DNA from: Bugula neritina
Lineage: Eukaryota > Animalia > Bryozoa
Assembly: GCA_964035545.1 (NCBI GenBank)
Contig: OZ037768.1
Coordinates: 17,219,875-17,283,874, forward strand
DNA length: 64,000 bases
Reading direction: 5' to 3'
A program made the translations under genes and the position numbers. This document shows, piece after piece, positions 8,040-41,400 of the stretch; positions within the stretch are counted from its first letter, which is position 1; each line of letters opens with the position of its first letter. Under the pieces are notes generated by a model that was not told where the DNA came from, ran no database searches, and saw nothing but the letters and a program-made list of their open reading frames with translations.

Positions 8040-8255
8040 GGAGTAGCCGTGGTCTAGGGGTTAGAGCATTTGCTAAGTAAGCACGAAGTCATGGGTTCTT
8101 GCCGCGGCAAAGGCCATTGGTGATGTTAGAAAGAGCATCCAGTCATAATTACTCTTGTGTCTCATTTAAATAAGTCCTTAGCCCGATTTAACAAAAACCC
8201 TTTGCATCAGAGGTTTTATCACTAGGATGGTGACTATAAACTTGCTTGAGTTTTT
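8040..8255 (+). mobile_element. tRNA-derived SINE (about 210 bp), copy 1
   Basis: A-box-like TAGCCGTGGTCTAGGGGTTAGAGC, B-box-like GGTTC, conserved core GGTGATGTTAGRAAGAGCATCCAGTCATAA and T-rich end. Six related copies occur in the window. Confidence 0.8.
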
Positions 8256-8895
8256 ATAATGCATGTAGTGCTTAGCTACACGGTAACTAAACCCAAGTAT
8301 GAATAAGAAATTTATCTACTTTAACTAAAGTGAAATAGATTTTTATGTATTGGTGAATGATTACATAGTTCAACAAGCAGTAATGTTACAATGCGAAGTA
8401 CATACACTACATTTCCATGCTTTTCATCACCATTTCTCATTCAGTGTTTAGAAACAGTTGCATGAAATATAGCCACAACCATATGTTCATCCATACAAGC
8501 ATTCATTCCCATAATGCTAAGTTATGAAAAACTAATGATATTGTATATTTGTATGTGGTTCTTAACCATACATTATATAGACTTATTGTATTTAAAATTT
8601 GCTTCAACATGCAATAAGTTTACAATGTGGTTATATAGTAGGCTGACAAAAAGTGAATATTATTTGAAATAACATACTAGGAGAGAAACAGGATAAAAAA
8701 GAAAATTCAGAATCACAGACTTTTTAATATATCAAACACTGAAGAAGAGGAAAAGCTATAGCTTAACATAAGAACTTTATAATATTATCTAGCTTAAACG
8801 TCTAAGCTTGCATATCAAAAGTTTATTTTTCCTGTAGTTGTTGAAAGTATTCAATTTTTCTATACAACTTATAAATTTATAAAAGGCATCTCTCC

Positions 8896-11800: not shown

Positions 11801-14800
11801 CTGGGCCGCTCCTATAGTAGTGGTTACCAAACCGTCTGGCAAAGTTCGCATCTGTGGAGATTTCAAGCGACTCAATCAGTGCATCTCCATAGATCAGCAT
11901 CCACTACCAAAACTGGATGATTTAATGAACAGGCTTAGAGGAGGTAAATTCTTCACCAAACTTGACTTGGCTGATGCTTACCTACAACTTGAGCTAGAAG
12001 ATGATGCCAAACAGCTGTGTGTGATAAACACTCCATTCGGATTATACCAATATAATAGAATGTGCTTTGGAATTGCCCCTGGTCCAGCTCAGTTTCAACG
12101 GTGTATGGATACCTTGACTCAAAAATTACCAGGAGTTGCTGCATACCTTGATGATTTAATCATTACTGGTAAAACGGAGGAAGAACACTGGACTAATCTG
12201 ACAAACCTGCTTTCAACACTTCAAGAGCATGGTTTTCGAATACGATTAGACAAGTGTGAATTCTTCAAGCACTCTGTTGAGTATCTGGGTCACACCATCG
12301 ACAAGGATGGCAAACGACCAACAGCTGCTTCCATGGCAGCTCTCTCTCAATTACCTCGACCACAGGACTTGCACCAACTGCAAGCATTTCTAGGAAAGGT
12401 TAACTACTATGGGCGCTTCATCTCTAATCTTGCGGATAAAGCAGCTCCACTGTACAAGCTCCTCAAGAATGATACCACATTCACATGGTCAAATGAATGT
12501 GAACAAGCCTTTACCCAGCTGAAGAATAGCATTATCAATGCTACTAGCCTGACACACTATGATGAGACAAAACCCCTAATTCTTGCAGCCGATGCGTCAT
12601 CCTATGGATTAGGAGTTGTTCTCTCACAGGATACTGATCAGGGAGAAGTTCCAGTGGCTTACGCTTCAAAAACAAGGAAATGCTATCTACATAGTACAAA
12701 CAGACAGTGGCAACTGGAAGAGGCATGCTAATCAGCTTCAAATTCGCCTTCCATCTACAAATATGAACAAATCAGTGGTACCCAACACACCCCAAGCTGA
12801 TAATAATATTTTCCATCCTCATGAGAGGCGCTATCCAACCAGAGAGCGCAGACAGCCAGATTGGTACAAGCCATAACTCTTAAGTCTAAATTTGTGAGGG
12901 AGGAGTGCTATGTATTGAACTAGCCTTGTCAATACACCACATAGATGCATATTATGACATACCACATTTTATGTGCTCGGTTACTTTTTATTCTAATGTC
13001 TATTTGTTTAAACTCATTATATACAGTTTTTGCCATATCAATATACAAGCCAGTTGTTATTCTGTCACTGTTTATCTACATGTATTTTTATGTCAGTTAC
13101 TTGTTAGCTTCAATACAATACAGTCATACATTCTACTCTACAGCCAATCTTACTTATACGTGCTTAATCTTACTGTTTACTCTTGTTTAACATAAATAAC
13201 AAGAACACAACAGGTGATGCTAGGAAGAGCATCCAGTCATAGTCGCTCCTGTGACCCATTTAACAAAAACCCATTCCATCAAGGGTTTTCTCACAGGGAT
13301 GGCGACTATAAACATTTGTAAGCTTTTTATTAGACAGTGCAACTACTGTCTGCATGGTGTGTGCTGTAACTGTATAAAATACAATAACCGATTACCGTAA
13401 ATGCAGTCAGGAATTCCTGCTCCTGTGTCAGACTGCAGCTCAACAAAAGAGATGGTGGTAGCGAAAAGAAACATGGCGATCATCAGATACAACACCATGA
13501 TGGTCAACTCCTTTAGACAGGCTTTTAGAGTTAATATTATAATCATTAGCCCGTCCACAAAACTTGCAAACTACAAAACAAGTATATAACAGCTCAAAGT
13601 TTACAATGTGCTGTAAATGTTATTTAGAAAGCATCCTGTGAAATGTGTATTAAGCACCAACTACTGGAAAATAACTTATGTTAAATAATAAGGTTGTGGC
13701 CATCTTCTATTTGATGTCATTTTAGCTTCTGTAAATAGAAATGAAACTGCTCGTATATACTGCTTTAGGTACGTTGAATAGTGCATATCCTAAAAAGTCT
13801 TTTGTTATGTTGAGAAAAAAACTGGAATAAGCAAAAACCATAACACAAAATTATTCAAAGTGACCCAATTATATGAAAAGAACTGTCCATATAATATCCA
13901 AATGTGTAAGTATAGGTGTAGGTCTAAGTGTAGGTGTAGGTGTAGATCTGTAGATGTAAGTGTAGGTGTATTGTGTAGGTGTATTGTGTAGGTGTAAGTG
14001 TAAATGTAGGTGTAAGTGTAGGTGTAAGTGTAAGTGTAAGTGTAGATGTAAGTGTAGGTGTAAGTGTAGGTGTAAGTGTAGATGTAAATGTAGGTGTAAG
14101 TGTAGGTGTAAGTGTAAGTGTAGGTGTGAGTGTAGGTGTGAGTGTAGGTGTGAGTGTAGGTGTAAGTGTAAGTGTAGGTGTAGATGTAAGTGTAGGTGTA
14201 AGTGTAGGTGTAAGTGTAGGTGTAAGTGTAGGTGTAAGTGTAGGTGTAAGTGTAGGTGTAAGTATAGATGTAAATGTAGGTGTAAGTGTAGGTGTAAGTA
14301 TAAGTCTAGGTAGGTCAAGTAGAATGCCTAATCAATTTTGCAGTTTTAGCAGTTTGAAAAAATCTGCAAATAAATTTAGGAATTATTATTTCAGATTTGC
14401 CTAATTACAAACAGAAAACCGTTGGAGGTAATTTAAAATTTAAAGTTAGCAATTTAATTAAAATTTTACTGAGCTTACTGATCAGCTCAGCTTATGTACT
14501 AATAGGAACAAGTTTACAGCTCCCATTGACTGTGCGTCACAACTGTGAGTAATGAAAGATTGAATTTCTGGTATATTGCATTGATGTGTGTGTAAATATT
14601 GTAAACAAAATTAAATTATCAATAATTTGCTAAATGCAAACTCTTGAAAAATATAGCTTTTCAAACCAATAATATCATTATAAACATTATTTGTGCAGAA
14701 AATACTGCAACTAGACCCAATTTTAAAATGAAGTCTGTTGAATAAGTATTGAGAAGGTAAAAGATCTAGCAAAAATATTATCAACTGTAAATAGGAAGGA

Positions 14801-16003
14801 ATGTGACTACCAATGTTTCAGCCAACCCACAATTTATTTTTTTTTTAATTATAATTTCTGTTTATATAAAGTAATTAGGTTAGAGCTGTTTTCCTTGAGA
14901 ACAAAATTGAAGTGCTGTCTAGAATAAAGTTATACCCTATCAAAAGAAAATATTAAAAGTTAAAGTACCTGAAATATCTTGAAAATCTTCAAGACCTGCA
15001 ACGACTGGAATATCATCAATACTCTATGTATTTCTTTGTCATAGTGCTCATCAAAGTCGTACGAATTTGATATCGATGTCAGTGCAAACGAGCTAACAGC
15101 ACAGAGCCCTGAAAATATGTCCATCCAGTTAATAAATGATTTGAAATACATCAATCCTGGGCACAGAATCAAACGCAGTACTGTTTCAAAAACGAAAAAT
15201 GTCATGAAAACTCTCTTGGCTGTAATGATCCAAGGTTTTGGTGAGCTGTGGACGTAGCAATCAATTTTCTTCATTCCCGAGCAACCGATATTTTCTATGG
15301 CCTGCTCCATGTCACCAGTTAGGTTTCTGACAAAGCTTCTAGCTTCCTTCTCCGGGTTCGGTTGTCTGTAGTGCACACTGGTTCCTAGACCATGGATAAT
15401 CAAATACAGAAATACAGAAGCAATGGTGATCACAGCATACATGACTGACAGTCTTCTAAACTTTGTATATGGACCAAGTGGGTCAGTTATAAAACACCAA
15501 CATGTATATCTCAGCTCTAAAAACTTGTTAGACCCTGGAGGAGGTGGTGGTGCTCGGTTTTCCAGCCACTGGAACTCGGCTTCCAAACGGGATTCTTCAT
15601 CATCTTGAATTCCATTGATACCATCACTCGGAATATTCCAGAAGTTTATTTCTTCCATCACCAGCTCTTTGTCATATCCAGATGGTACATTCAGCACATT
15701 ATATCTGAGAATATTCAGAACTGCATTGAATAATGCAGGATCTCTATCAAAATAGAATGCGTTGAGCTCTTCAATCCAATGATCTGCTAGTAAATGCGGA
15801 GAAGCAAACTTGCTGTGTGGGTAACTTTTTATCAGCTGATTAGAAACAATAAACTTTTCTCCTGATATGTTGAAATGAAAGAGTTGAAGTGAAACCTTGC
15901 TTTTCTCTTTAGTGTGTTTTACAGCCATCTTTTCATTTTCTACGCCCACTTTATTTTTGCTGATAGCAAAAACTGCCGTAGCTACAGCCGCAAAGTCAGC
16001 CAT
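8896..16003 (-). CDS. Voltage-gated K+ channel family subunit, Shaw/Kv3-like and divergent (paralog B)
   Basis: Coding exons 16003-14969, 13570-13396 and 9188-8896. Exon phases and the 175-bp middle exon match paralog A; filter [12 protein letters not shown]. The second coding intron carries the Gypsy insertion. Confidence 0.9.
9868..13212 (+). mobile_element. Ty3/Gypsy LTR retrotransposon (Mag-like), internally deleted and non-autonomous
   Basis: LTRs of 307 bp at 9868-10174 and 12906-13212 (TG...CA, no differences seen by eye). 5-bp TSD GGTGA at 9863-9867 and 13213-13217. PBS TGGTGTCAGAACTGGGAT at 10177-10194, a near-complement of the tRNA-Leu 3' end. PPT GAGGGAGGAG at 12896-12905. Confidence 0.97.
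10218..12731 (+). CDS. Gag-protease-reverse transcriptase polyprotein, truncated in RNase H
   Basis: 837-aa ORF with tandem Cys/His knuckles (CPQCYISHDRKQC, CKLCNKTGHISSVC), protease WDTGA, RT motifs WAAPIVVV, RICGDFK and YLDD, and the RNase H start ADASSYGLGVVL...VAYASKT. Homology then breaks off and there is no integrase core. Confidence 0.93.
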   Translation: MEEVIKQLVTIMQQQQQQQMEQFAQILGQFTTAVKPGEPAQNKSVTVPRFDSYDRDKESWTQYLQRLNQHFTVYNVSDSEQKRACLLSWIGSECYELLTKLYGSEDITTMSFDNLAGKLSTHFIETKHVQAARYQFYNCKMKPNQSYSDWAADLRGLARNCNFTCKKEDCGESYVDDQIRDIIIKETPHADVRRQCLLDPDPTLENVLKKAATYIQTAETDKVLKGETSTPVTTNQMSSTYKRQNKGSQGKRPQFHKSENQTAMPTQPSKLKSCPQCYISHDRKQCPHRNKQCKLCNKTGHISSVCKTSSKSSGNNSHFVEESSSSVYNIYERKGKQIWINTTVNNKQTQFQWDTGATCSMVGNKGYEALGSPPYQQTDTTLHSYGNTAMQVRGECYVTVTIGQTTKNNLRLLIVDSDEGVNLLGVDWSDSFGLSQQGLSAVDSDTEVTNAVHNVDTKVKVLTTKYPDVFKPGIGHCKTFKVPIYLKSEQKPCFSKPREIPYSQHEATRAELNRLEAEGVIQRINFSNWAAPIVVVTKPSGKVRICGDFKRLNQCISIDQHPLPKLDDLMNRLRGGKFFTKLDLADAYLQLELEDDAKQLCVINTPFGLYQYNRMCFGIAPGPAQFQRCMDTLTQKLPGVAAYLDDLIITGKTEEEHWTNLTNLLSTLQEHGFRIRLDKCEFFKHSVEYLGHTIDKDGKRPTAASMAALSQLPRPQDLHQLQAFLGKVNYYGRFISNLADKAAPLYKLLKNDTTFTWSNECEQAFTQLKNSIINATSLTHYDETKPLILAADASSYGLGVVLSQDTDQGEVPVAYASKTRKCYLHSTNRQWQLEEAC
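13905..14312. repeat. Hexamer microsatellite (GTGTAA/GTGTAG)n
   Basis: About 400 bp of GTGTAR units in an intron of Kv paralog B; it explains the HLHL, CRCK and VGVS ORFs. Confidence 0.97.
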
Positions 16004-18211
16004 ATTTCTTATATAGATACTACCTGCGAGTAAAGGATACAAATTATTTAACCTAGAAACAACACTGAAATGCCGTGAACATTTATTGATTGCATATAAA
16101 CACACATGAATTATTGAATAAATTCAACATATAAAGACAATCCTCATCATGATGGCTTATTATAATACATTTATTGTATTACGATTTGTAATAAATTCTT
16201 TTTAGATGAACTCGAATTTTTGTTTGCTACAGTATATAGACTAATGCCAGCTTGAATCTTTGTTTATTTTAAAAACTAATGACAGAAAAAAAATGTGATG
16301 AAATCTATTTGAAAACATAAAAGCCAAGCTGAGATGAAGTGCTTGTATTTAAATGTTTTACTTACTCAAACTTTCAGTTTCTAGAAGAGTAGACTCATGA
16401 ACTCGCTCTATCCTTATCCTTGCATCCTCTCAGAAGCTCATGCTGGCACACACTAAATTTATATACTATGCAGTGACCACATTTCACAATAAAATAATCC
16501 TGTATAATACTGGTTGATCAGACACTTATCCCATATTACAACTACTAAACACTGATTCTATTCAATAATGAAGAGAGCTAAAAAATCAACCTATTTGATT
16601 GCAGGTTTATCGACATGGCTCTTTCACTTTATTCAAATATTGATTTAAGATTTTCCATTTTCCTGGAAAAGTTCATTGCCATTACTGAATATATTATAAA
16701 TGTTAAATATTATTCCATCCCACATTTTACATAAAAGGTAATCTCCCTCTTGTGCCCATTTGAAATCCATTTCAAGCTTTATTTTCTATCATAATAAAAT
16801 ACTGTGTAGGCAAATATAACTGCATGGCTTTGATATTAACCATTGGATGGCCAACATGATATAGCATTAAACTAAACCACAATGAAGAAAATTAGGATGA
16901 GTTATGAAATTATGTTGCACCAAAATCACATGGGGCAGTTAATTAAGTTATATATTTACAATAATTTGTGCAATTGTTGTATATGTAGCTTGTGTCCGAA
17001 TCAATTGCTGTCATTATTTGCTTGCTTCGGGTTAATAAACACAAATGATTTCAAACACAAATTATTTCAAAAGTAATATGTAATAGCATGAATACATAGC
17101 TCTAATTGTCAACTCACTCTGCTCTTTGAATAGACATGTATACACGATTTCTGTTACTTCCTCAAGCAATGAAAACGACTGAATATGAATTGGTTTGATA
17201 TTTGAAACTGCATGTGGATATACAATGCCCATGTGCAACTAAGTGCTCTACACATTTTATTATCATAATTTATCAGTTATACATGTATAGCAGATGCCAG
17301 TGAAAGGAAATACAGCATATTATATGCAACAGATATTGGACTTTAGTGCCAAAACATCCTTATTACTGCTGCTGTAATATGTACTATAGACTATATCAAT
17401 AATGAAGCATGTAATTTTATTGCCTTTTCATTTCGCTTCATATGACTGACATCATGGCAGATGGATGCTGCCTTGCGGTGTGTTTTTTCACAATATGGAG
17501 TTGTTCCTCTTGGTACAGCTAATGCTTATACTCTTGTAGCTGTCATCCTTTCAACTGTGTGAGCATAATGTATATTGTGTTAGCAGGATTGATCATGGAA
17601 TGAAATGACAAAATATGATAACATTTGCATGTATGGAATTGAATAAAACAATGGCCAAAGCAATGGTCCACAATGATGATGTAAAACTTAAACATATTAA
17701 ATTCATTTACTGACTGCTAATTAAGTTTTAAAAATTTTCTTTAACACTTGGGGTGAAAAAATTGTTGCTGGTAATTAAATTGTTGTTACATATAATATTT
17801 TTGACTACTATTAGAGATCAAGCCCAGTCAACAAAAATTCATTTACTACTATTAGCATTATTATTTAATCATATAAACTAACCTGCCAGCTGCCCAATAC
17901 TTTAACTTTCACTAATACTCCTAGTCTGTTGTCTAGAAAGTTATTTAATCTACCAGGGTGAGGCTATGAAGACTCGCCAGAAGAGAGCATTTGTGAGACA
18001 CATGGACCAGAAACACTGGTTTGACAATACAATGAAGTCTAATAGCAGAGTTACAACTATAGCATAAGCTAGACAGGATGTGGTGAAAGAGGTGCCATCA
18101 GCCATTGTAATTCACCTACAACAATAGCGAAGTCTTTTAACACACTGTATATGCTGTCTGCCAACTCTCCCTTCCCGATGACCTCTGCAGGTTGAAATAG
18201 AAGCCTTGAAT

Positions 18212-18405
18212 AAAAAGCTCACGCAAGCTTATAGTCGCTATCCCGTCAGAAAGCCCCTTATGGAAGGGTTTTTTGTTAAAATCAGGCTAAGGATGAGGCA
18301 CAGGAGCAATTATGACTGAATGCTCTTCCTAACATCACCAATGGCCTTTGTCCGGACTCATGTTTACTAGGCAAGCGCTCTAACCCCTAGACTACGGCTA
18401 CTCTC
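18212..18405 (-). mobile_element. tRNA-derived SINE copy 3
   Basis: Reverse complement of the SINE core and head (...TGCTCTTCCTAACATCACCAATGGCC...CTAACCCCTAGACTACGGCTACTC). Confidence 0.8.
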
Positions 18406-18578
18406 TGAGTTAAATACTTTGAATGATCTAGATATAAGTAGCATAATTTATAGTTCCTATAGATGCTATAAAACTCGTTTTATTTGCAGAATATTTGTGC
18501 AATTAAGTTCAATGAGTAGACCGTTCTATATTTTTGGAGTGAATAGTTAAATAAAGGCAAAGTTCTACCCAAGACAGA

Positions 18579-18582
<4 letters not shown>

Positions 18583-18642
<60 letters not shown>
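18583..18642. repeat. (TA)n microsatellite
   Basis: About 30 TA units; the tract resumes at about 18957-18975 on the far side of the ribozyme-bearing insert. Confidence 0.95.
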
Positions 18643-18645
<3 letters not shown>

Positions 18646-18957
18646 CAATCTGTGGACAGCAGCTGTTTCGGGGTTTGTCCCCTCATCAGCACAGAACAGA
18701 GTACCATGGCCCACACCTTCGCAATAGTAGAAACTTATGTTTCTACTAAAGCATATTTAAAAGGTGTGTAAACTCAAGCCAGAGAGCTCAAGTGACTCTA
18801 GGGTCACCTAGGAGTCACGAGCCTTGCAAAATGCTAGCAGCTTGAGTTTGTGACCATGGTGAGAGAGCTCAATCACTGAATGTCATTGCTGAGCATTAAG
18901 TGAGAGCATAATACCTCAATCTGTGGACAGCAGCTGTTTCGGGGTTTGTCCCCTCAT
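18642..18957 (-). mobile_element. Retrozyme-like or Penelope-associated non-autonomous retroelement (271-nt period, about 1.17 monomers)
   Basis: A direct repeat of about 45 bp at 18642-18686 and 18913-18957 contains the hammerhead; the second copy is truncated. There are internal hairpins and (TA)n on both flanks. Confidence 0.7.
18649..18695 (-). ncRNA. Type I hammerhead ribozyme
   Basis: The minus strand reads TCTGTG-CTGATGA-GGGG-ACAAA-CCCC-GAAA-CAG-CTG-CTG-TC-CACAGA: stem I TCTGTG/CACAGA, core CUGAUGA, stem II GGGG/CCCC, GAAA, a minimal stem III and a GUC cleavage triplet. Confidence 0.9.
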
Positions 18958-19206
18958 ATATATATATATATATATGTTGGAGGAGTCATGGGCCTTGCAT
19001 TATAATGCAAATTGAATTCATGATATCTCTGAGCATAAATTATGTATGCATTATATTAAATATGTAAATGCATACATAAACTAGTTTTGGGAATTGGGAC
19101 ATAGAATGTATATCATTGATATTTTTCATATGCAGATATGTTTAAATTCCTTAATCATAAAATGATATAGAAAACTGAGCTTCAATTATTTATAGCCTAT
19201 TGTTTT

Positions 19207-19208
<2 letters not shown>

Positions 19209-19286
<78 letters not shown>
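19209..19286. repeat. (TA)n microsatellite
   Basis: About 39 TA units. Confidence 0.95.
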
Positions 19287-19292
<6 letters not shown>

Positions 19293-19630
19293 ATAAATAT
19301 ACGAGAAAAATTATTGATTCATTATTTTATTAGGCAAAGTAATTATACTGATATATATATATATATGTACAAATTTGTCATAAAACTCACCACATAAAAT
19401 TATAAAGATTATCCTGCTTTACATCATAACAAGTAAATCATTGTATTAATATGCAATAAAACATGTCAAAATATCAAATATGCTGCAATCACTAGCCGCT
19501 TTAACATGTTGTATACCCTTATTAAGTAGTACGCATTAAATGTAATGTAACAAGTGATGACAACCACGTAAACACACTACTATGAAAGTATATATAACAT
19601 TGATGACAAATGATAATAATTTTATTCTTT

Positions 19631-22600
19631 TCATTCTTGAGAGTTGAGTTTTGAAATATCTGAAGTTGTCGTTCCAGCAGAAGTGTTTTTCTGTTTGTGT
19701 TTCTTCTTCAAGGCAGCAAACAACAGCCTTCTTCTCTTCCTATTGTGCTCCCAGTAGACGTTAAAATGGCTGCCAATAATGGCCACTGGCAAAGCCGTAA
19801 GAATAATTCCAGAAATAGCGCACAAAACTCCGACAAAGTATCCACCAACTGTAGAAGGATAGAAGTCACCGTATCCAACTGTTGTCATGGTGATGATTGC
19901 CCACCAATATCCTAAAACCCAAAGAAATACTTGGCTATAAAGAATATCCGTTGTAAAGTCACAATGCAATGCTAGCCTACAGGCTTTATTTTGCATTTTT
20001 CATCATAAATTGACCAAAGAGCATAGAGATTTTGGTTCGCCGACTATTGGGTTCAAAAACTTCAGCTTATTAGCAACATGAAATGCCTATTACTGATGGA
20101 TGTATTTTTCTGCTTCTGCTCACTTGCCTTTGAAGAAACACCTATTTGTTACACACTGATGCAAAATAGACCAGTTTCGCAGTGATTTCAACAATTGCTT
20201 TAATTTCCCAACTGGTGATATAATATATCAGTTAATTAAAAGAATTTTTCTGAGTGCCAACAACAATAAAAATTCACACATCAATGAAGTCACAAGACAA
20301 ATGTTTAGTGTCCTAATATAATTTGCCTGACAATTACATCAAGTTTTATATCTTTCAGCACAGTGTGAGTAACTTTGCCTTGGCCCTAGACCAAGGCTGT
20401 CCAACAGCCGGGCCCCAGGGCCGGATGTGGCCCCCTGCCTACATTTATGTGGCTCTCAAAGACATAAAACTAAAATTATTTTTCACAGCATATACATGAA
20501 TTAGAGTGAAAAACCACCTGCCTGATTTATACACATGCTATAAAACATGCAGCCAGCATCAACTATTGGGACTTTATTCTGTAATGATTCATAAGAATTT
20601 GGAATAAAATAATTCATTAAATACTGTGGCTGTGGCCCCCAGCACAAACTAAAGTTTACAATGCGGCCTTCCCCACAAAAAATTCAGTGGCCCTCGATCT
20701 AAAAAGTTTGGACACTCCCGCCCTAAACAGTGTGGTTTTAGTCAACAAGTGTAAAGGCCTTAGTATTGGTCAGCCTACCCACACTGGCTAGTTTATTAAC
20801 GTATAATGATAGTATAATGATGACTACAATGCCGAGGTTGTATGGTCACTTACTGGGTTACCTTTATAGTTTATAGCATTACCAGCCAGTGACTTATTTA
20901 ATCAATAATTTTCTTTCCTTTTATTTTCTAAAGTTCACAGTCAACACTCACCATCCAAGCTTAAAATTCATTGCTTTTACAAAATATAATTGGCCTATGT
21001 AAAGAATAATAAGCAATTGCTTTGTAGATAGTTTTATGTTATTAGAAGTTGTAACTGCAAATTGTTAGAAAAAGAGGAATACAAAATCATTGATACAAAA
21101 AGCTTTGAGGTGAGGTGGATTAATGAAGAGGTTAGGAAAAGCCTGTGTTCTAAATCAAAAATGCAACAAATAAAGTTATGTTCTTTCAAAGATTATTCAA
21201 GCTATATCTCAAGCCTAATTCATAATGAAAATTAAAAAACTTAATCTATTGAAATTTCTTTCTTACTGAACCTAAATATTTCTACCACAAAGATACTTGT
21301 ACAGCAAAATACCAAAAATAGATTCAGCCCCTAATTAAATGTTTACACATTTATACTAACTGTAGTGCCAGTTCTCTGTAACATGAAAAATTGATATCTG
21401 AACATATTGTTGTCCAATTTTGTTGTTGTCACATAAAGAGTTCAATAGAATTGCCTCCTCCACCTATAGGCCTTAAGGTGGTAAACTTCAAAGCAAAGAA
21501 TCTTAAGAATTTTGAAAAATAGATAAAGGATGTTTTATGCCGATCTTCAGTATTTCTTGATATATTACACAGTATCCTCCATATAGACATGCAAGTGCTT
21601 TTGCAGTCACTGTCCACTTTTAATTTAATAGGGGCTGCTAGAATGGTATGATAAATCATATCTGTTGACTATATTGGTCATAGTAAAATATGATTGGTAT
21701 GAGCTTTGCTAATAAATTTTAACAAAGCTTTCTTGTGTCAAGCAGGTATAATTTATTTATGATAAATTTGCATGCTTGTCAAAGGTTTTCACATGCATTT
21801 TTAGACACACCTAAAAGTTAATGCAGTTTTTGATGTTGCATTAGGCAACCTAACATAGATTTTATTAGACTGTCTATGAAAATCTTAGCAAGTAAACGCA
21901 ACTATTAATTCCTTAGCTTTTAAAAATTAATCCCTGACCAGAAGTACCACACATGGTCATAAAATATGAGCAATTTCTCCAGCAGATATGCTGAAAGAAG
22001 TGAAGATATTTGATCATATGGTTGACTGACTTTGATCAACACTATAAACCTTGTTGGAGAATAAGTGTGATAGTAATGGCATCAGCCTGCATGGAAGAGC
22101 ACAAGAGGAATGATGAGATCAGAGGCATGGCAGGAGTAAAAGCAGTAACTGTATCGATGAGGAAGAGTTAGCCTAGGGCCACACAGTGCGTATTTTCGCA
22201 TGCGAAAATTGAAATCACAAGTAGCAAAGGTGTCCACTGTAGCGTCAGTGACGCGTGATAAATAAAGCATTCATTTTAAAAAATCGCACTCGCTTTCAAT
22301 AAAACGCAATTACTGGAATATAGCACTAAAATAAAGAAATTGGGCTCGCTGAATAACTACCAGCCAATTAGGTGACGATGACCGAGACGATTCGCACTTG
22401 CGTTGAAAATGCAGAGCGACAAGTGCGAATGTTTTCTCAATGCGCACAGTGGATACCTTTGCTACTTGTGATTTCAATTTTCGCATGCGAAAATACGCAC
22501 CGTGTGGCCCTAGGCTAAGCTGAAATGGTATGGGCATGTATGCAGGTGAGACAAAGAGGAGGGCATAAAGAGAATCAGCAACATCAGTGTGGAAGGCAAG

Positions 22601-24292
22601 AGAGACAAATAGGTGAATGAATACCATAAGATGGGGATATGAGAGCGTGGAGCTTGCATAGCAAGGACACATGTAATAGAATTAGATAGAAACCATTAAT
22701 TGAGTTGGTTATGCAGAACAGTACTTAAATAGGTCGGATGAGAATAAGTGTGGTATGACTAGACTGTAAGTCTATGCAAAAGAATTTTAAGTATCTGATG
22801 CTGTGGTTCCCAGACTACCATACAGCATGAAGGCAGCGCTAGTTGATGGTTTAAGGCAGCACTCACCATAAACACAATCAGGCACTCCAACACCCATTTC
22901 TGATTGCAGCTCTAGGAACGAAACGGATGTAGCAAATATAAACATTGCTATCATTAGATACATAACCAGAAGGAAAAGTTCTTTCAAACAGGCTTTGAGT
23001 GTAAGCATCATCACCATGAGCCCATCTATCAGACTTGCGTACTGTAATGAAGAGAATTTGATGCTATAATTAATATATAGCTTTATTACTAATACAAGGT
23101 ATAACATCACAGCCCTATATATATTAATTACTTACTTTTGGCACTGCAAATGAAGTCAATATAAGATTATAGATTCAATGATATTATTTATCGACTATGT
23201 TTAATTTATTTGTTCAGAAAATAAGAAATTCTAAACAATTATAGAATTTGACTTTACCTGAAAAATTTTGAAAATCCTCAAAATCTGAATGGACTGCAGA
23301 CAGATAACAATGTAATGCAAATGCATTTCAGCTTCTCCCACAATCTCTTTGGTAACCACAACAATTTCGATGGCAAAAGCTGCCAACGCACCTATTCCAG
23401 CTAGAATGTCAATCCAAGTTATTATAGACCTAAAATACGCCAAGCCTGGACATAGGATCAATCGAATTAATGTTTCCAGGATAAAAACAAATTTTAAAGC
23501 GTATTTGGAGTAGGTTATCCAAAGTAAAGGTGTTGTTCGAATGTAGCATGATATTTTTGACATTTGAGAACAACCTAGATTGTCTATAGCAGAGTCTAGG
23601 TTGGTGGTCTCCGCAGTCTTGTTAGTGTAAAGAGCAGGTAAAGCGTGCTCATCAATAACTCTGTAATGTGGGCTGGTGCCTATGCCATAAAGTATCATGT
23701 ATAAAACCACTGCGACAATCGAAAACACGGCATATGCGATAGACATTCGCCGATATTTTGTATATGGACCAAGTGGGTCAGTTATAAAACACCAACATTT
23801 ATATCTCAGCTCTAAAAACTTGCTAGACCCTGGAGGAGGTGGTGGTATTCGGTTTTCCAGCCACTGGAACTCGGCTTCCAAACGTAACTCTTCATCATCC
23901 TGAACTCCTTCGACATCTTCTTTTGGAACATTCCAGAAGTTAATTTCTTCCATCACCAGCTCTTTGTCATATCCAGATGGTACATTCAACACATTGTATC
24001 TGAGAATATTCAGGACTGCATTGAATAATGCAGGGTCTCTATCAAAATAGAATGCATTGAGCTCTTCAATCCAATGATCTGCTAGTAAATGTGGAGAAGC
24101 AAACTTGCTGTGTGGGTAACTTTTTACCAGCTGATTAGAAACAATAAACTTCTGACCCGAAATGTTAATATGGAGAAAATGTAAATCTTTGACAGCATTA
24201 TCTTCCACCTTATTTGTCGTCATCTTTTTCAGATCTTCATTTGATAAGCTCATATTAATCACAGCACTAGCAACTGCAGCAACGTCACTCAT
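19631..24292 (-). CDS. Voltage-gated K+ channel family subunit, Shaw/Kv3-like and divergent (paralog C)
   Basis: Coding exons 24292-23258, 23041-22867 (175 bp) and 19911-19631; structure matches A and B; filter [12 protein letters not shown]. Confidence 0.9.
20392..20720. mobile_element. hAT-type MITE
   Basis: Imperfect TIRs CAAGGCTGTCCAAC...TTTGGACACTCCCG, subterminal GGCCC motifs and an 8-bp TSD CCCTAGAC/CCCTAAAC (20384-20391, 20721-20728). Confidence 0.75.
21106..21290 (+). repeat. Unclassified interspersed repeat of about 170 bp, copy 1 of 4
   Basis: GAGGT...GAAAAGCCTGTGTTCTA...AAGTTATGTTC...CTAAAT; related copies at about 35925-36092, 38215-38382 and 56379-56540. Confidence 0.7.
22085..22680 (+). 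mobile_element. Decayed 3' end of an RTE-clade non-LTR retrotransposon, interrupted by a MITE
   Basis: Removing the MITE gives [31 protein letters not shown]...VEGKR, which resembles the RTE C-terminal RNxxIR...LxWxGHVxR...GKR signature; it contains an in-frame stop. Confidence 0.65.
22171..22515. mobile_element. MITE with TIRs of about 70 bp, probably PIF/Harbinger
   Basis: GCCTAGGGCCACACAGTGCGTATTTTCGCATGCGAAAATTGAAATCACAAGTAGCAAAGG... with its near-perfect inverse ending at 22515; flanks are TTA and TAA. Confidence 0.85.
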
Positions 24293-26452
24293 ATTGAATG
24301 CTTTATGGGCTTGAATCCAGAGTAATGCTGTTATGAAAAAGAAAAATGTTTAATAAGAACAAATAATGATGCAAGACTGACAATTTTCATTCAACATAAT
24401 AAAATACATTTTAAGTAAATGAATTTTATTTACAAATTCTTACCTGAGAGCTTGAGAAAGGTAGAGGATGACCCTAACGCTTGATTTGTGGTTGTAAAAC
24501 TGCCTAAATAGTTAACAAGCTGCTGCCTACTTGAACAAAACAAGTCAATTGTCAAGAGCTGCCAAATCTCTGCACGAGAGGTGTTAAGAAATTAGTTCTC
24601 CAGCTGTGCCTTCTCAGTGTTACTTGCGGAGTGAATAATAGTTTGTAAGTAGCTAATTATTGAGTCTAAGTTCTTAGTGCTGCTTCTAGCTGAGGCTACA
24701 AACTAGGTGATTAGCATAGCCCTGCCCGAACAGAAATGAATGAATTGTGGCACACATTACTTTTAAGTAGATCATCTACCCTGGCTTATCCTTTCACACT
24801 ACAGTAATTACAGCTCCACAATAATACGTAATTTTATCCTGTCGTAAAATACATAAATCTAATTTAATAAATTGCCAAGACTGAAGAATGTCACAAACCT
24901 ACATTTAGAGCATAGACTGGTACCATATAACTAGTAAAATGGGGATGATTAGTCTCTTAGAGGCTGTATTGCCATAAGGTTATTGCACCATAAAGTAGTG
25001 GTGAATTTTCTTTTACATAATATTCAAAAATTATTTATTCAAGAACATACTAGGCCCTATAACTAAAAGTATTTTTTATATTTTTCTAAAATATAGTAAT
25101 TATATATGCTTGTTTAAAATAAAAGGTTGAATAAATGTCTGATACAATTAAGGGATTGTTTTAAATAGACAGTAAATTTTTCAGTATAAGCTAGTAAATA
25201 GCATATAGGAAAACCACTGAATATAATAATATGTAGGCATCTTGAACTAAATACTACCATCATTCTCAAAAATGCTCACAATGTTGTAAAGATATAATGG
25301 CAGGTCTGTAGCCACTTGCCTTTAAACATTCAATTGCTTAGCAATATGATGCAAGCACCTACTATTTGTACCATCAGACCAGCCACAAAAACAAGGTCAA
25401 CCGAGTGATCTTAGTATTATATTATAACAAAGCAATAAGCCCACTGTCAATATGTCAATGTGAATATTTGTAAACATACATCTGTTTTGTGAACTAGAAG
25501 TATTTTTTGTTGTATTATATGAAATGACTTTGGTTGACAACAGTCACAGCACTTTATACTTAAATACCTTGCAGTTTTAGTTCTAAAAACTTACATTGAA
25601 ATTTGGACTTGCAATATCAGTAATAAACACATGTTTTTTCTGACTGCATAAAGAACTGGTGACAGCTTGGCACATTCTATAGAAAGTAATAGCAATAGTT
25701 GGTCTACACTCTACAATCTACATCATTAAATGTTGAAAATTACAACTTTACAAAAAAAATAATGAAGGAAGCTTGGTAGGTTAGCAAGTGCTTTGTTTTA
25801 TTTTAACTTGTTTTCAGCCCATCTCTTAAAGTTAACTGTAGGCTCCCAGAAGAAATATATTTAGTGAAAGCTGCCATCGAAATAAAAAAAGTAATTCAAA
25901 CATGGATAAAATAAAAGCACAGCACCAACAAAACAATGATCATCAACCCATACCCTCGTAAAAACACCAAAAAGATTGTATTAAGTATTTTTTTCCCAAA
26001 AGAATGTATATGTTAGACTAAGAAAAACATTCGTTTAAAAACCTCACCATACCAACTTCTGCAATATTAAGATAAAAATACAAGATTAATGCTAAGTTGT
26101 ACTTCTAACAATTGAGATTACTGATGAAATTTAAACAGAACAACATTTTTCTATCTGCAAGAAAATAACATTAATATTCTTTAAAAAGAAACAACCTTAT
26201 TTATGGCTGTAAGCATTGGAACATATTTCATTGAATGAAATGTTTAAATGTCACTGCTCTAACTGTGACAAGATAATGCATTTCCAACATGATCAGCAGC
26301 TATGATATGGCATACATATAAACACACACACAAACATATTTAGTTTACAGTTTCAGAGCTGTGAGAATTAGCAATATGGAGATTCAAGCACTCATGGAAG
26401 GGAGAGGGGAGTAAATAAGTAACACAAAAACAATCCATCATTAAGGATTGCA

Positions 26453-32400: not shown

Positions 32401-35400
32401 ATGAGACAAGATTTGGAGTTGTCTCTGCAACCCGAGCAGGACATGGATGAAAGTCTAGTCTTACCTCAGCAATCACTCCAATACATCCGGACACCGTAGC
32501 GGCTTTAGGCTGAGCTCCACTCATACCACCCAATCCAGAGCTAACAAACACCTTACCCTTTAGAGTATCAGAACCCAGGTATCTCCTGCCTGCATTCAAC
32601 ACTGTCAGCTACAAGCCAATCACAAGATGCAACATATTTTTATATTACATAATATTTTGGAACACAATTTTTACTCTCAAGTCAGGTTTATTGACCTAAT
32701 TTTGGATTAATAAAACTTAAGCATTTTGCAGTGCTAGGGGTTAGAACGCTGGCTTAGTAAACATGTTACCATGGGTTCGATCCCCAGTAAGAGCCATTGG
32801 TGATGTTAGGAAGAGCATCCAGTCATAAGTGCACCTCATAGAAAACAAGACTTTAGCCAGCTTAAAGAAGCTCTTTTCATTAATGGTCTTAACAGGGGTG
32901 GCGATTAAAAACCTACGCAACTAATTGTGAATGCTACGGTTTGACATGAGTTAGACAATATGCTGTGTCTTCAGGTGTTTTAGGGTGTGCATGTGTAATA
33001 TCATATTTAAACTTACAGTTGTGCCGTGGACAATCCCCTGAGGGCCGATGTAACAGTAACTCCCAGCAGTCATCTGCCCATACCTGCGTGCAAACAGCTA
33101 ATATGAGACTAGAAGATAATGTCACAAATGCTTATAGTTTTATATTTTGTCAAATTTACAAACAATAGTTTTACTGAGAAGATAACTCTTAAATATTGGG
33201 ACTAGGCTGAAAAGGAAAATTACTCCCATATAAACTAGAACAGGCTTTGCATGCTATGGATGTCCTGATGTTGACTCTCACAAGATAATGAGAATGTGTA
33301 TTTATTAAGGAATCTATTTCCTACAGGCACTATTTCTTAACATCAGCTGGTAGAGCACACTGCTTGAAACTGATTCATAAGAGAACATGAAGCTGTTTAC
33401 CCTGTGCCTCTCTCTGCTGCTAGTTGTCATGTATTCAGAGGCAGCAGTTACTTACAGCTGCCACCCCGACAGCGCTATGTAAGCATATTATTTGAACCTA
33501 ATTCTTTGACTACAATTTGAACTAAATTCTTTGACCAGAAGTAGCATTATAGTATACCTAGATTTCTTTTAGTTTAGTCAGAAATAAAATTTGTATTCAA
33601 TTGCTAAGCTGAGAAAGTTTCATGCCAAAAATTTCTCTACTCCTCTATAGAGGTTTAGATGTGAAAATCTGTTCCATATGCTGGATGAATAGATGCATAG
33701 GCAAGTTTCATAATACTTTCACACATACTGCATGTTATGTAGAAAATTTCAAATCTCAAAAGAAAAGAGCAAATCATGCTTTCATATTTCTGTAACGCTC
33801 AAAACTATTACCCTATAAAAGTTTACATCAGTTATGCAGTTTAATTAGATTATACTAAAATAATATCATGATAAACAAGTTTAAAGGTTTATCTAAATTG
33901 TAAACCATACTAAATTTTCAACTTCATTTCTATATGGCTCAATGAATTCTGCTAAACACTTATTTGTTTCAATAAATTTTTTATATGTTTCTGGTAATTC
34001 TATCAACAATAAAAACTTAAAATTCAATTGGATATTTTTAACCAACACTACTAAACATGGCAATACTTTTCTTAGGTATGATTAACTAAAATGTACATAT
34101 ACAATACTATTGCTAGGTACGATGAAGTAAGATGTAGGAAACTAGGATGTGATCCGAATGTACCCGGGTGTCCTTACAACCAAGCTTTAGTTAAGACGTC
34201 ATACAGTTGCCACCCAGATAGTGATAGGTCAAGTTATTTCATTACTTTTATACTGATGACATAATGTAAAGGAAGAAGACAACTCTAATTAACATTTTCT
34301 TGAAATTACACACAGCATAGCACAACTTTTTGCATATATTACAAAATCGTTGGAAAATTGAATAGTTTTATTCTTTAGTGTATCCAATCCAATTAAAACC
34401 AAAAGAAGTTTACTAAAGGAATTTGACAATATAATTTTATTCTCAATTTCTAATCAGCAGTATTTTACCCTATATAGTAGTTTTCTATCTCTAAAACATT
34501 CACTATGTGATTACAGGTACGACCCAGTGAAATGTGGATTCGGAAAATAGAGTGTTGCAGGAGAAAAGAAAAAGGCTGAAAATATACAGCAGCTCCAAGG
34601 AATAGCTCAACATAAACTTTATGCTCGATATAATGATGTTATAAATAAACTGTTTAATCAATTCTTGATTGTGGTTATAGTTTAGTGAACATATATTAAT
34701 AATATCCAACACTATTGGTTAGATGAAATATGACATCACAACATATAAAATCTGCAGGTCCAGAGTGATTTATTAACCAGAGCGGGTGTCCGCCATTTTG
34801 TGACTTATCACAGGAGCCATGGTTCATACTACTGTAATATGTTTACAGTGAATAGTTAATTGACGAATTGATCCAGTTTTACTAGTTTTTGCACCTTTGT
34901 TACGTGCACAAAAAATTGTGATGGGAACTATACAATAAATACATTATTTACTCACACAATTTATGTCTAATTATCAACAGAAACAGGCTTCAATTGCAAT
35001 ATAAATTTGGGTGTCTTTTTATTCTGCACATCTTATTACCACTTAACATGGGTGTAATTTATGAGCTTGATTCATATAGTATTTTTACACGTCTTAATTT
35101 TATGTAAAACTTTAAAAAAAAATTTTCACAAAAAAACTATTCGAAGAATTCAATGATAAAGTTATTGATTGTTCGTATGACTAAAAAGATATGAACTTAC
35201 ATGTTTTTTAAAATAATAATAATATTCCTAGGCCTTCAAATAAGTTTATAATAGTTAAATTGACTAACTTTTGGCTCTATATCATCAATCCATTAAGTTA
35301 GACACACATAACTATTAGTAATAATTAAATAATTTATTAAATTTTGCAGTTACCAAGTATAATCATGTAATAATTAATATATACATTTTTACAGTAATTA

Positions 35401-38400
35401 CATTACTAGTATTTTTGATTAATTTTTTGAAGAAATCACTTAATCATTTAATTTGTCAAATAATAATATGTTAGAGTTTAGTAAAAGTTAAATTTTAAAT
35501 AAAACCAAACGGTGATAGTAAATTCTTGAGTTCTATAAAAGGAAAATTACTCCCATATAAACTAAAACAGACTTTGCATGCTATGGATGTCCTGATGTTA
35601 ACTCTCACAAGATAATGAGGATGTGTATTTATTAAGGAATCTATTTCCTACAGACACTATTTCTTAACATCAGCTGGTAGAGCACACTGTTTGAAACTGA
35701 TTCATAAGAGAACATGAAGCTGTTTACCCTGTGCCTCTCTCTGCTGCTAGTTGTCATGTATTCAGAGGCAGCAGTTACTTACAGCTGTCATCCCGACAGC
35801 CGCATGTAAGCATATTTGAACCTAATTCTTTGACCAGAAATATTATTGTAGCATAGATTTCTTTAAGTTTAGTCAGAAATATTTTTTGCATTCAATAGTC
35901 TAGCCAAAAAAGGTATAGCAAGTGAGGTAGGTACAGTAATAGAGAAATTGAGAAAAGCCTGTGTTCTAGATTAGAAATGTAGCCAAAGAAGTTATGTTCT
36001 TGCAAGAATTTTAACCCTTGACCCAAAGTAAAATTCAATAAAAAAATTAAAGAACCTAGGCTATTTCCATTTCTCCACTACTGCTCCTAAATTGAGTGTA
36101 GTATAGCAAAAAATTTTGCATATTACAAAAATGGTTGGAAAATTGAGTATTTCTATTCTTTGGTTTATAACAATGGAGTATAATAATTGGCAGAAATTTC
36201 CACTATTTTAGGTTTGATCGAGTCAAGTGTGGATATGCAACACAGAGACCGACAGTGAAACCAGATTCCTCCTTTAGCTGTCACCCGGACAGCCGACTGT
36301 AAGTGTAGAAAACAGTGTAAGTGTAGAACTAGTGTAGGTGTATGGAATAGTGTAAGTGTAGAAATAATGTAGGTGTTTGAAAGCATGGAAGGTTAACCTA
36401 GGGGGAAGAATCTGTGAGAAATGCAGTATTAATCTTTCTGCAACTATAGCCTTGAATGTAGCGTACATGTGTATACCACACTTACTTAATATACCATACA
36501 GCGTATTTACACCTATACTTAAAGTACATTGCCTTATTTCTATTATCAATTTTTCACAGACAATTTACATATAGGTCTACAGCTATTATAGGTGAAGTAC
36601 AAAAATAGCAATTGTGACTCATCCAACTATTGTCACCAAAACATCAGGTCAAATAAATCAAACTTGTGGCAATTTTAGATACAATCCAACTAAATGTGGA
36701 ATTCCTACTTCAAAACCAGCAGCTGGCAAGCCAGACAATTCTTATAGTTGTCATCCTGATAGTCGAAAGTGAGTTCAACTATTACATAATATGTTACATA
36801 ATATTATATAACATAATATATTACATAATATATCATATGATGATCAGTTGGTATAGAGTATAGAGTATAGACTATTACATTAGTTGAGAGACCACTACAA
36901 ACAAATTGCTAAGTTTTAGTCCACCAACACTGCTACTTCCAGTTTTACTACTACCACTAGTCACTAGTGCATGTCTAGTGAGGCTTCTCTTTCTCTATAG
37001 TTGACTAGTTGAAGACCACATTTTCCCATGAGCAGGGCGGCAGGTTATATCTAGACGTACTCTTACTTTGGGCTTTTTTCTAAAACTTTCATCAGACTGC
37101 TTGAAGTGTTGTTACAGTAACAATTCATGTATATCACTGCTCTGAAAAATGCTATTTTATGTACTCAAAATCACTGAGGTGACAAGTATTTCCCTGCTAT
37201 ATCTACTACCTCTACAAAACATAGTCTGCACAGTATAGTTCTCCAGTTTGAAGTTGGGTTTTATTGAAACACCCAACTTCAAACTCGAGAACAGCGAACT
37301 ACTGCACTCAATCACCCCCAACTTGGAGCTGCTATTATACCAAGTTACCACATATAACTCATGCAAATCATAGCTAACATATGCTGAAAAAATAAAAAGA
37401 GAAGACGAATCACATATTCTAGGGATTACAATAAAAGTAAACTGATTATTTTGTCTCTTTAGCTACAACCCAGCGAAATGCGGGATTCCTACTTCAAGGC
37501 CAGCAGCCTCTAAGCCAGACTACTCTTACAGCTGTCACCCCGACAGTCCTAAGTGAGTGAAACACATTGTCTGCTATTAGAACAATCGCTTTTTGGAGGA
37601 GAGAAAAAAGTCTCGATGACATACTTAAATTTTAAAAGATAGAAAGTTAATTTTTTACAACTACATTTGCAAACAACAGAAGTTTAACAACATAATTGGA
37701 GTTTAGCAATATAATTTTATTCTCTATTTTCAATCAGTAGTATTCTACGTGGTACATGGTCTATAAATTAAAGTAGTTTTCTATCTCCAAAACATTCACT
37801 ATGTGATTACAGGTACAACCCAGTGAAATGTGGATTCGGAAAATAGAGTGTTGCAGGAGAAAAGAAAAAGGCTGAAAATATACAGCAGCTCCAAGGAATA
37901 ACTCAACATAAACTTTATGCTCGATATAATGATGTTATAAATAAACTGTTTAATTAATTCTTGATTGTGGTTATAATTTAGTGAACATATATAACTGATA
38001 TCCTACACTATTGGTTAGACATCAGGAAACATCCCAATCTGTAGGTCTACCATTATAGAAATCATCAATTGATGACAATTATATTTGCTGAGACTAACCT
38101 ACACGCAGGCTTAAATAAAAAACATGTATAAAGCAAGACTTTACATATAGAATGGCTACACCTGAGTGCTACACTCAATAGAAGTTGTTGTTAATATTGC
38201 GTTAGGTTTCCACGAGGTAGGTGCAGTAATAGAGAAATTGAGGAAAGCCTGTGTTCTAGATTATAAATGTATCCAAAGAAGTTATGTTCCCTCAAGAATT
38301 TCAACCTGCGCCCAAACCAAAATTTAATAATAAAATTATAGAACTTAGGCTATCTCAATTTCTTCACTACTACTTCTAAATGGTTTCTACAAGTAGGCAC

Positions 38401-41400
38401 TGAAAACAATTTGTTGCAAATTTGAAAGTTAATGAAAGGTATTTTTTGTGCTTCCTCCATTTTTGCAACATTTTTGAAAATTCTTTACAACTCACTGCAA
38501 CATAACTTTTTAACAAATTGTCAAAGGATAGAAAGCAGAAAAGAATAATAATGGTCTATTTAAATACTGAAGAAAACACCTAATATATATTCCCCAATTA
38601 GTTAGGGGAGTAAGAAGTAGTATGCCTAAGCATAGTCAGTAGCTCAAGCAGCAAAACTTGGGGAAGTAATTATTTTCTACTGAGCTAGAACAAGATATGC
38701 TGATTCAATGCACACTTATTGTAATTAGACAGGAGATATACAATGAGCTTCCATGGTGCCCCTACGATGAATTTGTGGTTGTGGTTTACACGAACCTATG
38801 GCAGTGGTTTCATTTGATGCAACTGTTTCCAAAATTTCAATGAAAAATCCATTTGGAAAAGTAGCAATAAGCTAGAATCTGGTGAACTTACATAGTGACA
38901 CCGAGAGCAAAGAACCTCTCGTAATCCTGGCGAGATGAATAGTTTGGAATCATCATACCGTTAGTTATGACGACTCTAGGAGCTGATGGTTGACTCGGGA
39001 ACAAACCACTGGGGTGGCCGGAGTACATGACCAGAGTCTGATTCTCAGTCATCTCACTCAGGTAGTTCATTACTAGCCAGAACTATAAACACCATTACAA
39101 GCTGGTGAAATACTAGATATCTTGAATGTGAACTATGCTATAAACTGTAACAATCAATGCTCTGACAGAAAAAAACAGCAGAAGGAGTTTTAAACATTAA
39201 ATTACCAAGCATTTTAAGGCAGACTAATACTCTTCTTTCCTGTTTAAAGTAGATATGGGAGTGAAGGACTCACTACATCACAATGCTATGCCAATAGTAA
39301 AATATCTGTTTATCATAATTGAAGCAACTTACATAAAAAATACAAAATATTCAACTCAATTAAAGACAAGACTACAAGACTTTATATAAAATAGTTCTAC
39401 CCGCATAAAATTCTAGTAAGGTATAAAAAATAGTATAGGGCTCTAAATAGTTGTACATTGGAAACTGTAGCATGCTAATCTTTTAAAGACAACCACAGCT
39501 CTTTAGTGACTACCAGTAAAGATGCTTATTTGTTGTGAGTAGTTAGAGATACTGTTCATACCTGAGCCCAGTTGCCCAGGACCTGCCCATTGCCACCGTA
39601 TGTTACCAACTCGTGAGGGAACTGGGCTACTTTGTGGTCCAAGTTATTCATGATCATCAGCATTATAGCTGCAGCCTGTGTACACTTGGCAGGGTAAAGG
39701 TGTATAGGGTAAGCCCTGGGCACAAGATACAACTGATGACAAAGTAGCAATAATCATGCATATGATAAATTTGTAATTATATGAGTTTTTGGAATACAAG
39801 ACAAGCATGGTTTTTAGGATTTTAGCTTAAAACGGCGCAGGTAATAATGGCACAATTGGAAAAGTAGGCAAAAATGGCACACTGATGGTAAATTTGGCCA
39901 AACCTTTACACTCAAACCTAAGCCCCCAACCTCCACCTCAAACCCAATATAAAAAATGTGCCATTTTTACCAGACACCTGCTTTTAGTGATGCCATTAGC
40001 CAAAATATCATGATATTTTGATGATTGCGATTATTTGAAAGTAAATTATACAACTTTCGGAAAAAAATATGAGTCAACTCACTTCATCTGAATATGTGAG
40101 GGTAAAAACCGATACATATAAATGTGGCCATATAGCTTCAGCTCCTGAGCAAACTCAGCCGCCAGTTCTTTGTGGACATCCTTTGGGAAGTATCGCAAGG
40201 CATTTTTCACAGCTAGCTAAAATGAATTATCAACAAATAACTTCAATTATACAACAATTCTGTTTGAGTATACTGCTGAAAAACAATACTTGAACAAAAG
40301 GCAATAATTATCAATTGTCTTTGGGTAAATCTTTGGAATTGTTATATAAGTGATCAACTACAATAAAAACTTGCATATTAACATGGAGTGAATTTTGGTT
40401 ACATAAGTTACATGTGCCCAAACCACACATTGCATACAAATCTTCTTCCAGGAAACATAACCAGAATGAAGCACAATGACTTATATTTATACGAAGCAAT
40501 GAATTAAAACAGCTTTATCACTATAAATCACACATTACTGCAAAAATTGATATTGTTGAATAAAATACAAACAATTTGATTGAGTAGTACTATTAGTAAA
40601 TGGAAATGAAAACAGAAAATGTGAGGTTAGGAGAGGAGTTTCACCGATACAGATCTTGAATAGCAGACAACTAGTAACCGATCACCAAGGAGTAGCTAAT
40701 GCAAGGTTATATTATACTTACTAACTGCAGGACTATATTATACTTACTAACTGCAGGACTATATTATACTTACTAACTGCAGGGTTATATTACACGTACT
40801 AACTGCAGGGTTATATTATACTTACTAACTGCAGGGCTATATTACACTTACTAACTGCAGGGTTATATTATACTTACTAACTACAGGGCTATATTATACT
40901 TACTAACTGCAGGGCTATATTATACTTACTAACTGCAGAGTTATATTATACTTACTAACTGCAGGGCTATATTATACTTACTAACTGCAGGGTTATATTA
41001 TACTTACTAACTACAGGGCTATATTATACTTACTAACTGCAGGGCTATATTATACTTACTAACTGCAGAGTTATATTATACTTACTAACTGCAGGGCTAT
41101 ATTATACTTACTAACTGCAGGGCTATATTATACTTACTAACTGCAGGGTTATATTATACTTACTAACTGCAGGGTTATATTATACTTACTAACTGCAGGG
41201 CTATATTATACTTACTAACTGCAGGGTTATATTGTACTTACTAACTGCAGGGCTATATTATACTTACTAACTGCAGGGTTATATTATACTTACTAACTGC
41301 AGGGCTATATTATACTTACTAACTGCAGGGCTATATTAGACTTACTAACTGCAGAGTTATATTAGACTTACTAACTGCAGGGCTATATTATACTTACTAA

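Follow-up and report, generated by a model that had tools for sequence, protein, structure and literature searches.

Nested antisense genes in introns are by themselves an ordinary arrangement, and as nested genes and lineage-specific cysteine-rich secreted families are each common in invertebrates, a locus that combines the two holds limited surprise until a function is shown. Among the protein families with which such a locus may be compared, peritrophin/CBM14-type proteins carry a signal peptide and small disulfide modules (six cysteines in about 55-60 residues) with conserved aromatics and Thr/Pro-rich linkers, multi-domain Kazal-type inhibitors consist of tandem disulfide units with a six-cysteine fold, and conotoxin-like peptides combine a conserved signal region with hypervariable sequence between the cysteines. 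MgCRP-I of Mytilus (PMC4558851) is also among the closest known systems. Here we describe two tandem genes (genes 1 and 2) in a window of 64,000 nucleotides from the bryozoan Bugula neritina (assembly GCA_964035545.1, contig OZ037768.1, positions 17,219,875 to 17,283,874), which lie on the + strand within an intron of the urocanase gene (UROC1) of the - strand and encode likely secreted proteins built of repeated loops closed by two cysteines (C-X11-C). Their family is undescribed, but both its type, that of small secreted cysteine-rich repeat proteins, and its nested arrangement are well known.

Both gene models translate open, without stops, and all six of their introns have GT..AG borders and are in phase 2. 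Gene 1 has three coding exons (78 amino acids, two loops) and gene 2 has five (130 amino acids, four loops, ATG at 35714). The G+C content of the exons is 0.47 vs 0.27-0.32 in the introns, and an AATAAA is found about 94 bases past the stop of each gene. Eight public runs cover part of the stretch, none of them on record as RNA; four of the eight were examined, as contigs, and one of these, X8, is listed as probably RNA, which is a guess. The splicing of gene 1 in X8, together with the open translation and the uniform introns, confirms the claim of an earlier note on this DNA that two tandem spliced genes are present on the + strand. The features of the locus are the following.

33084..38891, - strand: intron of the host urocanase gene (UROC1) enclosing genes 1 and 2; CT..AC joint in X8
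33210..33386, + strand: 5' flank of gene 1, duplicated ahead of gene 2 (35537-35713; 171 of 177 bases identical), with TATAAA at about -158
33387..33478, + strand: coding exon 1 of gene 1, which holds a predicted signal peptide and the first half of loop 1; model, with the joint 33478/34117 in X8
34076..34116, + strand: decayed duplicate of the acceptor region of gene 1 exon 2, with an in-frame stop
34117..34227, + strand: gene 1 exon 2, which completes loop 1, runs through a linker with an additional cysteine pair and encodes the first half of loop 2; model, with an X8 contig of depth 206.9
34517..34550, + strand: gene 1 last coding exon, ending Cys-Gly-Phe-Gly-Lys-stop; model, with an X8 contig in which 26 letters of exon 2 stand directly ahead
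34644..34649, + strand: AATAAA, likely polyadenylation signal of gene 1; from the sequence
35714..35805, + strand: gene 2 exon 1 (coding); model, matching gene 1 exon 1 at 87 of 92 bases
36212..36298, + strand: gene 2 exon 2, 87 nucleotides, phase 2-2; model
36679..36768, + strand: gene 2 exon 3, 90 nucleotides, phase 2-2; model
37463..37552, + strand: gene 2 exon 4, 90 nucleotides, phase 2-2; model, 78% like exon 3 including flanks
37813..37846, + strand: gene 2 last coding exon; model
37940..37945, + strand: AATAAA, likely polyadenylation signal of gene 2; from the sequence

In X8, one contig joins 33478 to 34117 across the first intron of gene 1 (GT..AG, 35 letters on the short side), 34117 being the acceptor used by the transcript, and the host intron is joined in the opposite orientation (CT..AC, listed as 33080/38889, depth 540.3). 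The two joints, one on each strand, thus occur in a single run, and the flanking host exon matches Urocanase_N (Pfam), which upholds for gene 1 the antisense nesting that had been proposed. Neither joint was seen in the contigs of the three other runs examined. The junctions predicted in the earlier note were recovered in part: the first of gene 1 is joined and the second (34227/34517) is present as a loose end, the last 26 letters of exon 2 standing directly ahead of exon 3, but those of gene 2 are not among the joints listed for the X8 contigs. Over the exon bins of gene 2, X8 exceeds the DNA run from this sample in summed contig depth, which is a poor measure. The X8 lineage differs from the window at many intron positions; over gene 1 exon 2 its contig shows five differences, and the four that could be placed are all synonymous.

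The two genes are 95-97% alike in the 5' flank, the first exon, the last exon and the 3' untranslated region (87 of 92 bases are identical at one end of the genes and 34 of 35 at the other), and their internal exons share 41-46% protein identity. A recent duplication, with exon replacement or with gene conversion at the ends, could have left such near-identical ends around divergent middles. About 60 bases 5' of each ATG (~33317-33326 and 35644-35653) there is a pyrimidine tract that resembles an acceptor and ends in CAG, which would allow for a non-coding exon further upstream or for trans-splicing. A tandem duplication at 34076-34136 covers the acceptor region of exon 2 of gene 1, with the stop in the upstream copy, and further duplication is seen in runs X2, X3 and X8. 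Rfam gave no matches in 32900-39100.

Each repeat reads [YF]-S-C-H-P-D-S-x-x-[YF]-[DN]-x-x-[KR]-C, and in most cases Trp-Gly or Gly comes next. In the window, six matches to the DNA pattern for [YF]SCHPDS are present vs 0.01 expected. Behind an acceptor, the second half of the motif has seven matches on the + strand of the window and none on the - strand (0.375 expected); six of these matches are the modelled exons and the seventh (34076) is the decayed duplicate with the stop. Among the six window copies of the seven-codon core (21 bases), eight bases vary, seven of them at third positions, and the ratio of non-synonymous to synonymous differences per site (pN/pS) is about 0.014 (a rough value, with synonymous sites saturated); for the second half of the motif it is about 0.44. 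Purifying selection on the motif, as previously suggested, is thus supported. The linker of gene 1 contains, in addition, a pair of cysteines (C-X6-C) that was absent from the earlier note.

Homologues were sought in metagenome contigs by a scan with the first half of the motif only, which gave 33 matches at 27 loci. Five loci (L007, L015, L018, L024 and L027) with 11 matches are homologous: a phase-2 GT follows every one of the 11, eight of the exons begin with the second half of the motif behind an acceptor, and three are first exons with a hydrophobic N-terminus. The other 22 loci (22 matches) were dismissed as chance, as none of them has the second half of the motif upstream. On L018, a downstream urocanase exon is followed by the first exons of the homologue, and on L027, from the same assembly, the last exons of the homologue are followed by an upstream urocanase exon, with the same intron position. 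The homologue of this distant species, which we infer to be another bryozoan, therefore lies antisense in the same urocanase intron as the window genes. Since five of its urocanase exons are just 69-83% identical in DNA to those of the window, the nesting must be old, and it is only this persistence between species that makes the nesting notable. L015 overlaps L018 and L027 at 91-93% identity, and a composite gene of the three (from different assemblies) comprises a predicted signal peptide and five loops and ends in Cys-Arg-Gly-Phe-stop. The predicted signal peptides have diverged between the species and the core of the motif is fixed; upstream elements common to both species lack significance, since 154 of 500 shuffles scored at least as high. 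L007 is more distant, with at least four internal exons, one of which has three residues between loops, and no urocanase match was found on it. Directly downstream of its loop gene there is a small three-exon gene (L007:2263-2391, +) that encodes a Kunitz domain (Pfam, E 1.1e-13) and probably a signal peptide; its last exon recurs about 800 bases onward.

The six window units and ten from the five loci make up a set of 16, in which L015, L018 and L024 are near-duplicates; the units were picked by the motif pattern, so the conservation of their first half is partly built in. The spacing of 11 residues between the cysteines is kept in 16/16 units, with His at +1 in 15 and Asp at +3 in all. Positions +5 and +6 are variable (Arg, Met, Leu and Lys are among the residues, and Pro occupies +5 in 8/16) and +10 is equally so. 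Window units end in Tyr-Asx-Pro-x-Lys-Cys-Gly, and those of the other species mostly have Arg at +9 and Trp after the cysteine. From one loop to another the intervening stretch varies from three residues (last exon of L007) to 24 while the spacing is fixed, so the unit is the loop rather than the exon. The phase-2 intron splits every unit at the same codon, position +6, and each internal exon, a circular permutation of the unit, completes one unit and opens the next. The exon being out of register with the unit, duplicating or skipping a single exon would add or remove exactly one loop, and valency could be changed in this simple way.

None of the searches assigned the loops to a named family, in agreement with the earlier failure to recognise one; single exons, as queries, obtained no match among annotated proteins or PDB sequences, in Pfam or in the ESM Atlas, and the literature search likewise gave none. 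Pfam gave no family for any of the five window exons searched or for any of 12 exons, although this is a weak test as the exons cut every loop in half. The PDB sequence search gave one match (E 2.1) in linker residues only and a further search none, and the ESM Atlas held no usable match for a single exon. Word-index protein searches returned only the single-exon gene calls P0001 and P0021 (1/1 and 2/18 candidates), with none from NCBI or UniRef. The unspliced motif pattern had no matches in viral contigs; one match in a prokaryote genome, in a frame of 21 codons, was taken as chance. In the titles and abstract openings of the papers listed by a motif search, which would rank papers with such strings at the top, SCHPDS, CHPDSR and VKCGFGK were not found (subscription papers, figures and bioRxiv supplements being outside the scope of that search), nor was the motif found in the part of PMC4990251 examined or in passages and one supplementary file of PMC13425148.

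A HMMER search with a four-exon profile against 1.84 billion representatives gave three matches, among them P0022 (E 1.1e-6); P0023 was set aside because its match is confined to a short stretch. As the same profile would miss the true homologue L007 (E 0.11), absence of the family from other bryozoans cannot be inferred. P0022 is a secreted-looking hypothetical protein of bacterial type from JGI/IMG (575 amino acids, cluster of 6), in which 18 tandem C-X11-C loops in register with the bryozoan unit, separated by four-residue spacers, precede a larger domain with an HExxH-like motif. All 18 loops have Tyr/Phe at +7 and Asp/Asn at +8, 11 have Ser at +4 and 10 have Pro at +2. The match fell to E 420 with a 12-exon profile and reached 15.8 bits with a unit profile (best of the shuffles 3.8); P0022 itself has no Pfam family above the cut-off and no match in the PDB sequence search, and in the ESM Atlas its repeats gave no usable match (best template modelling (TM) score 0.28). 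We regard the likeness as probably a convergent micro-fold, not shown to be homologous, and as a hint at structure only. The single-exon model (mean predicted local distance difference test score, pLDDT, of 56) contains only a short helix after [YF][DN], and a single-sequence AlphaFold model of a cluster mate of P0022 places a loop and a helix in each repeat (pLDDT ~50-66 there, mean 44), so that the position of the helix agrees between the two. P0022 loops mostly have Asp at +1 and Thr/Ser at +3; that the bryozoan units instead keep His and Asp suggests a role for these residues beyond folding.

The N-termini of both window proteins begin with Met-Lys, followed by a stretch of 11 residues with a hydropathy of 2.84 and small residues at the likely cut site; on such inspection, secretion, as claimed before, is likely. 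Thr, Pro, Gly, Arg and Lys abound in the linkers; in a tally of 13, which leaves out the shortest one, of L007, Thr makes up 19% and Pro 17%. Dibasic or RxxR sites are absent from gene 2, L027 and L007, L015 has only an RK-Pro, and in gene 1 a single RK lies within the linker; judged from these sequences, there are no usable convertase or dibasic sites between the loops. The earlier view of the products as secreted bioactive peptides is weakened accordingly, the release of short peptides being doubtful. C-terminal amidation, also claimed, is consistent with the Gly-Lys end of both window genes but does not hold as a feature of the family, because the single homologous last exon found, that of L027, ends C-R-G-F-stop without a glycine donor; the Gly-Lys end is thus seen only in the lineage of the window.

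An invariant module, a variable copy number, Thr/Pro-rich spacers and the lack of processing sites together fit best with an intact multivalent binder, and we tentatively favour the reading, somewhat short of even odds, that the proteins are likely secreted and act uncut as binders of a fixed target outside the cell. The N-terminus would be cleaved off as a signal peptide, roughly 19 residues long, and the two cysteines of each C-X11-C pair would bond with each other and so staple a turn-rich loop to the short helix that starts after [YF][DN]. The linkers, probably extended and O-glycosylated, would string two to five such units like beads, with the near-invariant aromatic, Ser, His and Asp as a putative binding face and avidity arising from repetition. 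By analogy, the target may be a surface polymer of cuticle, mucus or microbes, e.g., chitin or some other glycan. Several points weigh against this reading. Single basic residues are common in the linkers and compatible with monobasic cleavage, the Gly-Lys end is present in both window genes, and the predicted charge of about +8 of the gene 2 product also fits an antimicrobial. The unit lacks the six-cysteine framework of CBM14, both structure models are poor and neither is of a spliced protein, and expression is read from contigs of X8, one run guessed to be RNA, which also has intron-containing contigs (depth ~20).

The alternative that survives best, though we consider it unlikely, is a defence peptide (antimicrobial or deterrent), in which cationic Pro/Arg/Lys linkers and loops would act on microbes or grazers. 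The products are small, likely secreted and cysteine-stapled, that of gene 2 is cationic, an amidated end is possible in the lineage of the window, and near-identical gene ends with very different middles are often met in defence-peptide families. Purifying selection, however, acts strongly on the loop core, both within species and between them, and the core is not hypervariable; the predicted signal peptide changes more than the motif across species, and the gene 1 product is neutral. A multi-headed serine protease inhibitor, with a reactive bond in each loop near the two variable positions, is rather improbable. Variation at +5/+6 within a fixed frame would suit it, as would a likeness of the window ending to the Tyr-x-Pro-Val-Cys-Gly of Kazal domains and the Kunitz gene after the homologue in L007; but Pro takes +5 in half of the units, +10 varies as much, the variety at +6 follows from exon joining because the intron splits that codon, and each unit has two cysteines vs the six of Kazal, with no Pfam match in any exon. 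Still more doubtful is a precursor of neuropeptides, hormones or pheromones, which would be cut into cyclic peptides with the last one amidated: the absence of usable dibasic sites between units and of Gly-Lys in L027 speaks against it, as does, within the reach of a shallow, homology-based survey, its absence from the 11 Bugula neritina precursors given in Table 1 of PMC4990251, notwithstanding a likely signal peptide, a repeated near-invariant motif that fits a conserved receptor, and the Gly-Lys ends of both window genes. A secreted metal-binding or mineral-associated protein is very unlikely, since the kept His and Asp, which differ from the P0022 loops and would serve as ligands, are accompanied by cysteines predicted to be oxidised, a single His per unit and proteins that are not acidic.

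Going beyond the multivalent binder itself, the loop-helix of about 17 residues and one disulfide may be a minimal recognition module new to description, whose His/Asp/aromatic face is fixed and whose dose is set by duplications of one exon, used as a bryozoan surface-recognition or signalling ligand (towards microbes or symbionts, or between zooids), which has been kept in the urocanase intron over deep time; we offer this wider proposal as a long shot. The module is conserved, expressed and small enough for synthesis, so its function is directly testable, and it could serve as a compact binding scaffold.

Elsewhere in the window, the - strand carries a tandem array of three genes for voltage-gated potassium channels (5706-24349), in each of which the first exon is large, and an LTR (long terminal repeat) retroelement with matching terminal repeats (9852-13195) has a gag-protease-reverse transcriptase-RNase H frame of 844 amino acids that apparently stops before the integrase. 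Two copies of a very high-copy short element (35924-36092 and 38214-38382, the second with terminal inverted repeats; contig depth up to ~10^5) are probably a miniature inverted-repeat transposable element, and another hairpin repeat is found near 37238-37333. A potassium-channel exon is 94% identical to an annotated protein of Bugula neritina and 49% to its counterpart in Watersipora subatra, which marks the DNA as that of a Bugula-type cheilostome. The secreted proteins of bryozoans have hardly been catalogued, and no annotated product was found for genes 1 and 2 although this neighbouring gene is annotated.

Compared with the known systems, the locus resembles other nested antisense protein-coding genes in that whole spliced genes lie in a host intron on the opposite strand, here with tandem duplication. 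P0022 has the register of the C-X11-C unit in common with the bryozoan proteins but Asp instead of His at +1 and a larger domain after the repeat. Kazal-type inhibitors share the tandem disulfide units and, in the window copies, a similar Tyr-x-Pro...Cys-Gly, but their six-cysteine fold is absent here, Pro is frequent at the would-be reactive position, and the other species mostly have Arg at +9 and Trp after the cysteine. From conotoxin-like peptides the bryozoan family differs in the opposite distribution of change, with a nearly invariant core and a diverged predicted signal peptide. With the peritrophin/CBM14-type proteins it shares the signal peptide (here predicted), the small disulfide modules, the conserved aromatics and the Thr/Pro-rich linkers, its unit being distinguished by two cysteines in about 17 residues and by the lack of an exon-level Pfam match.

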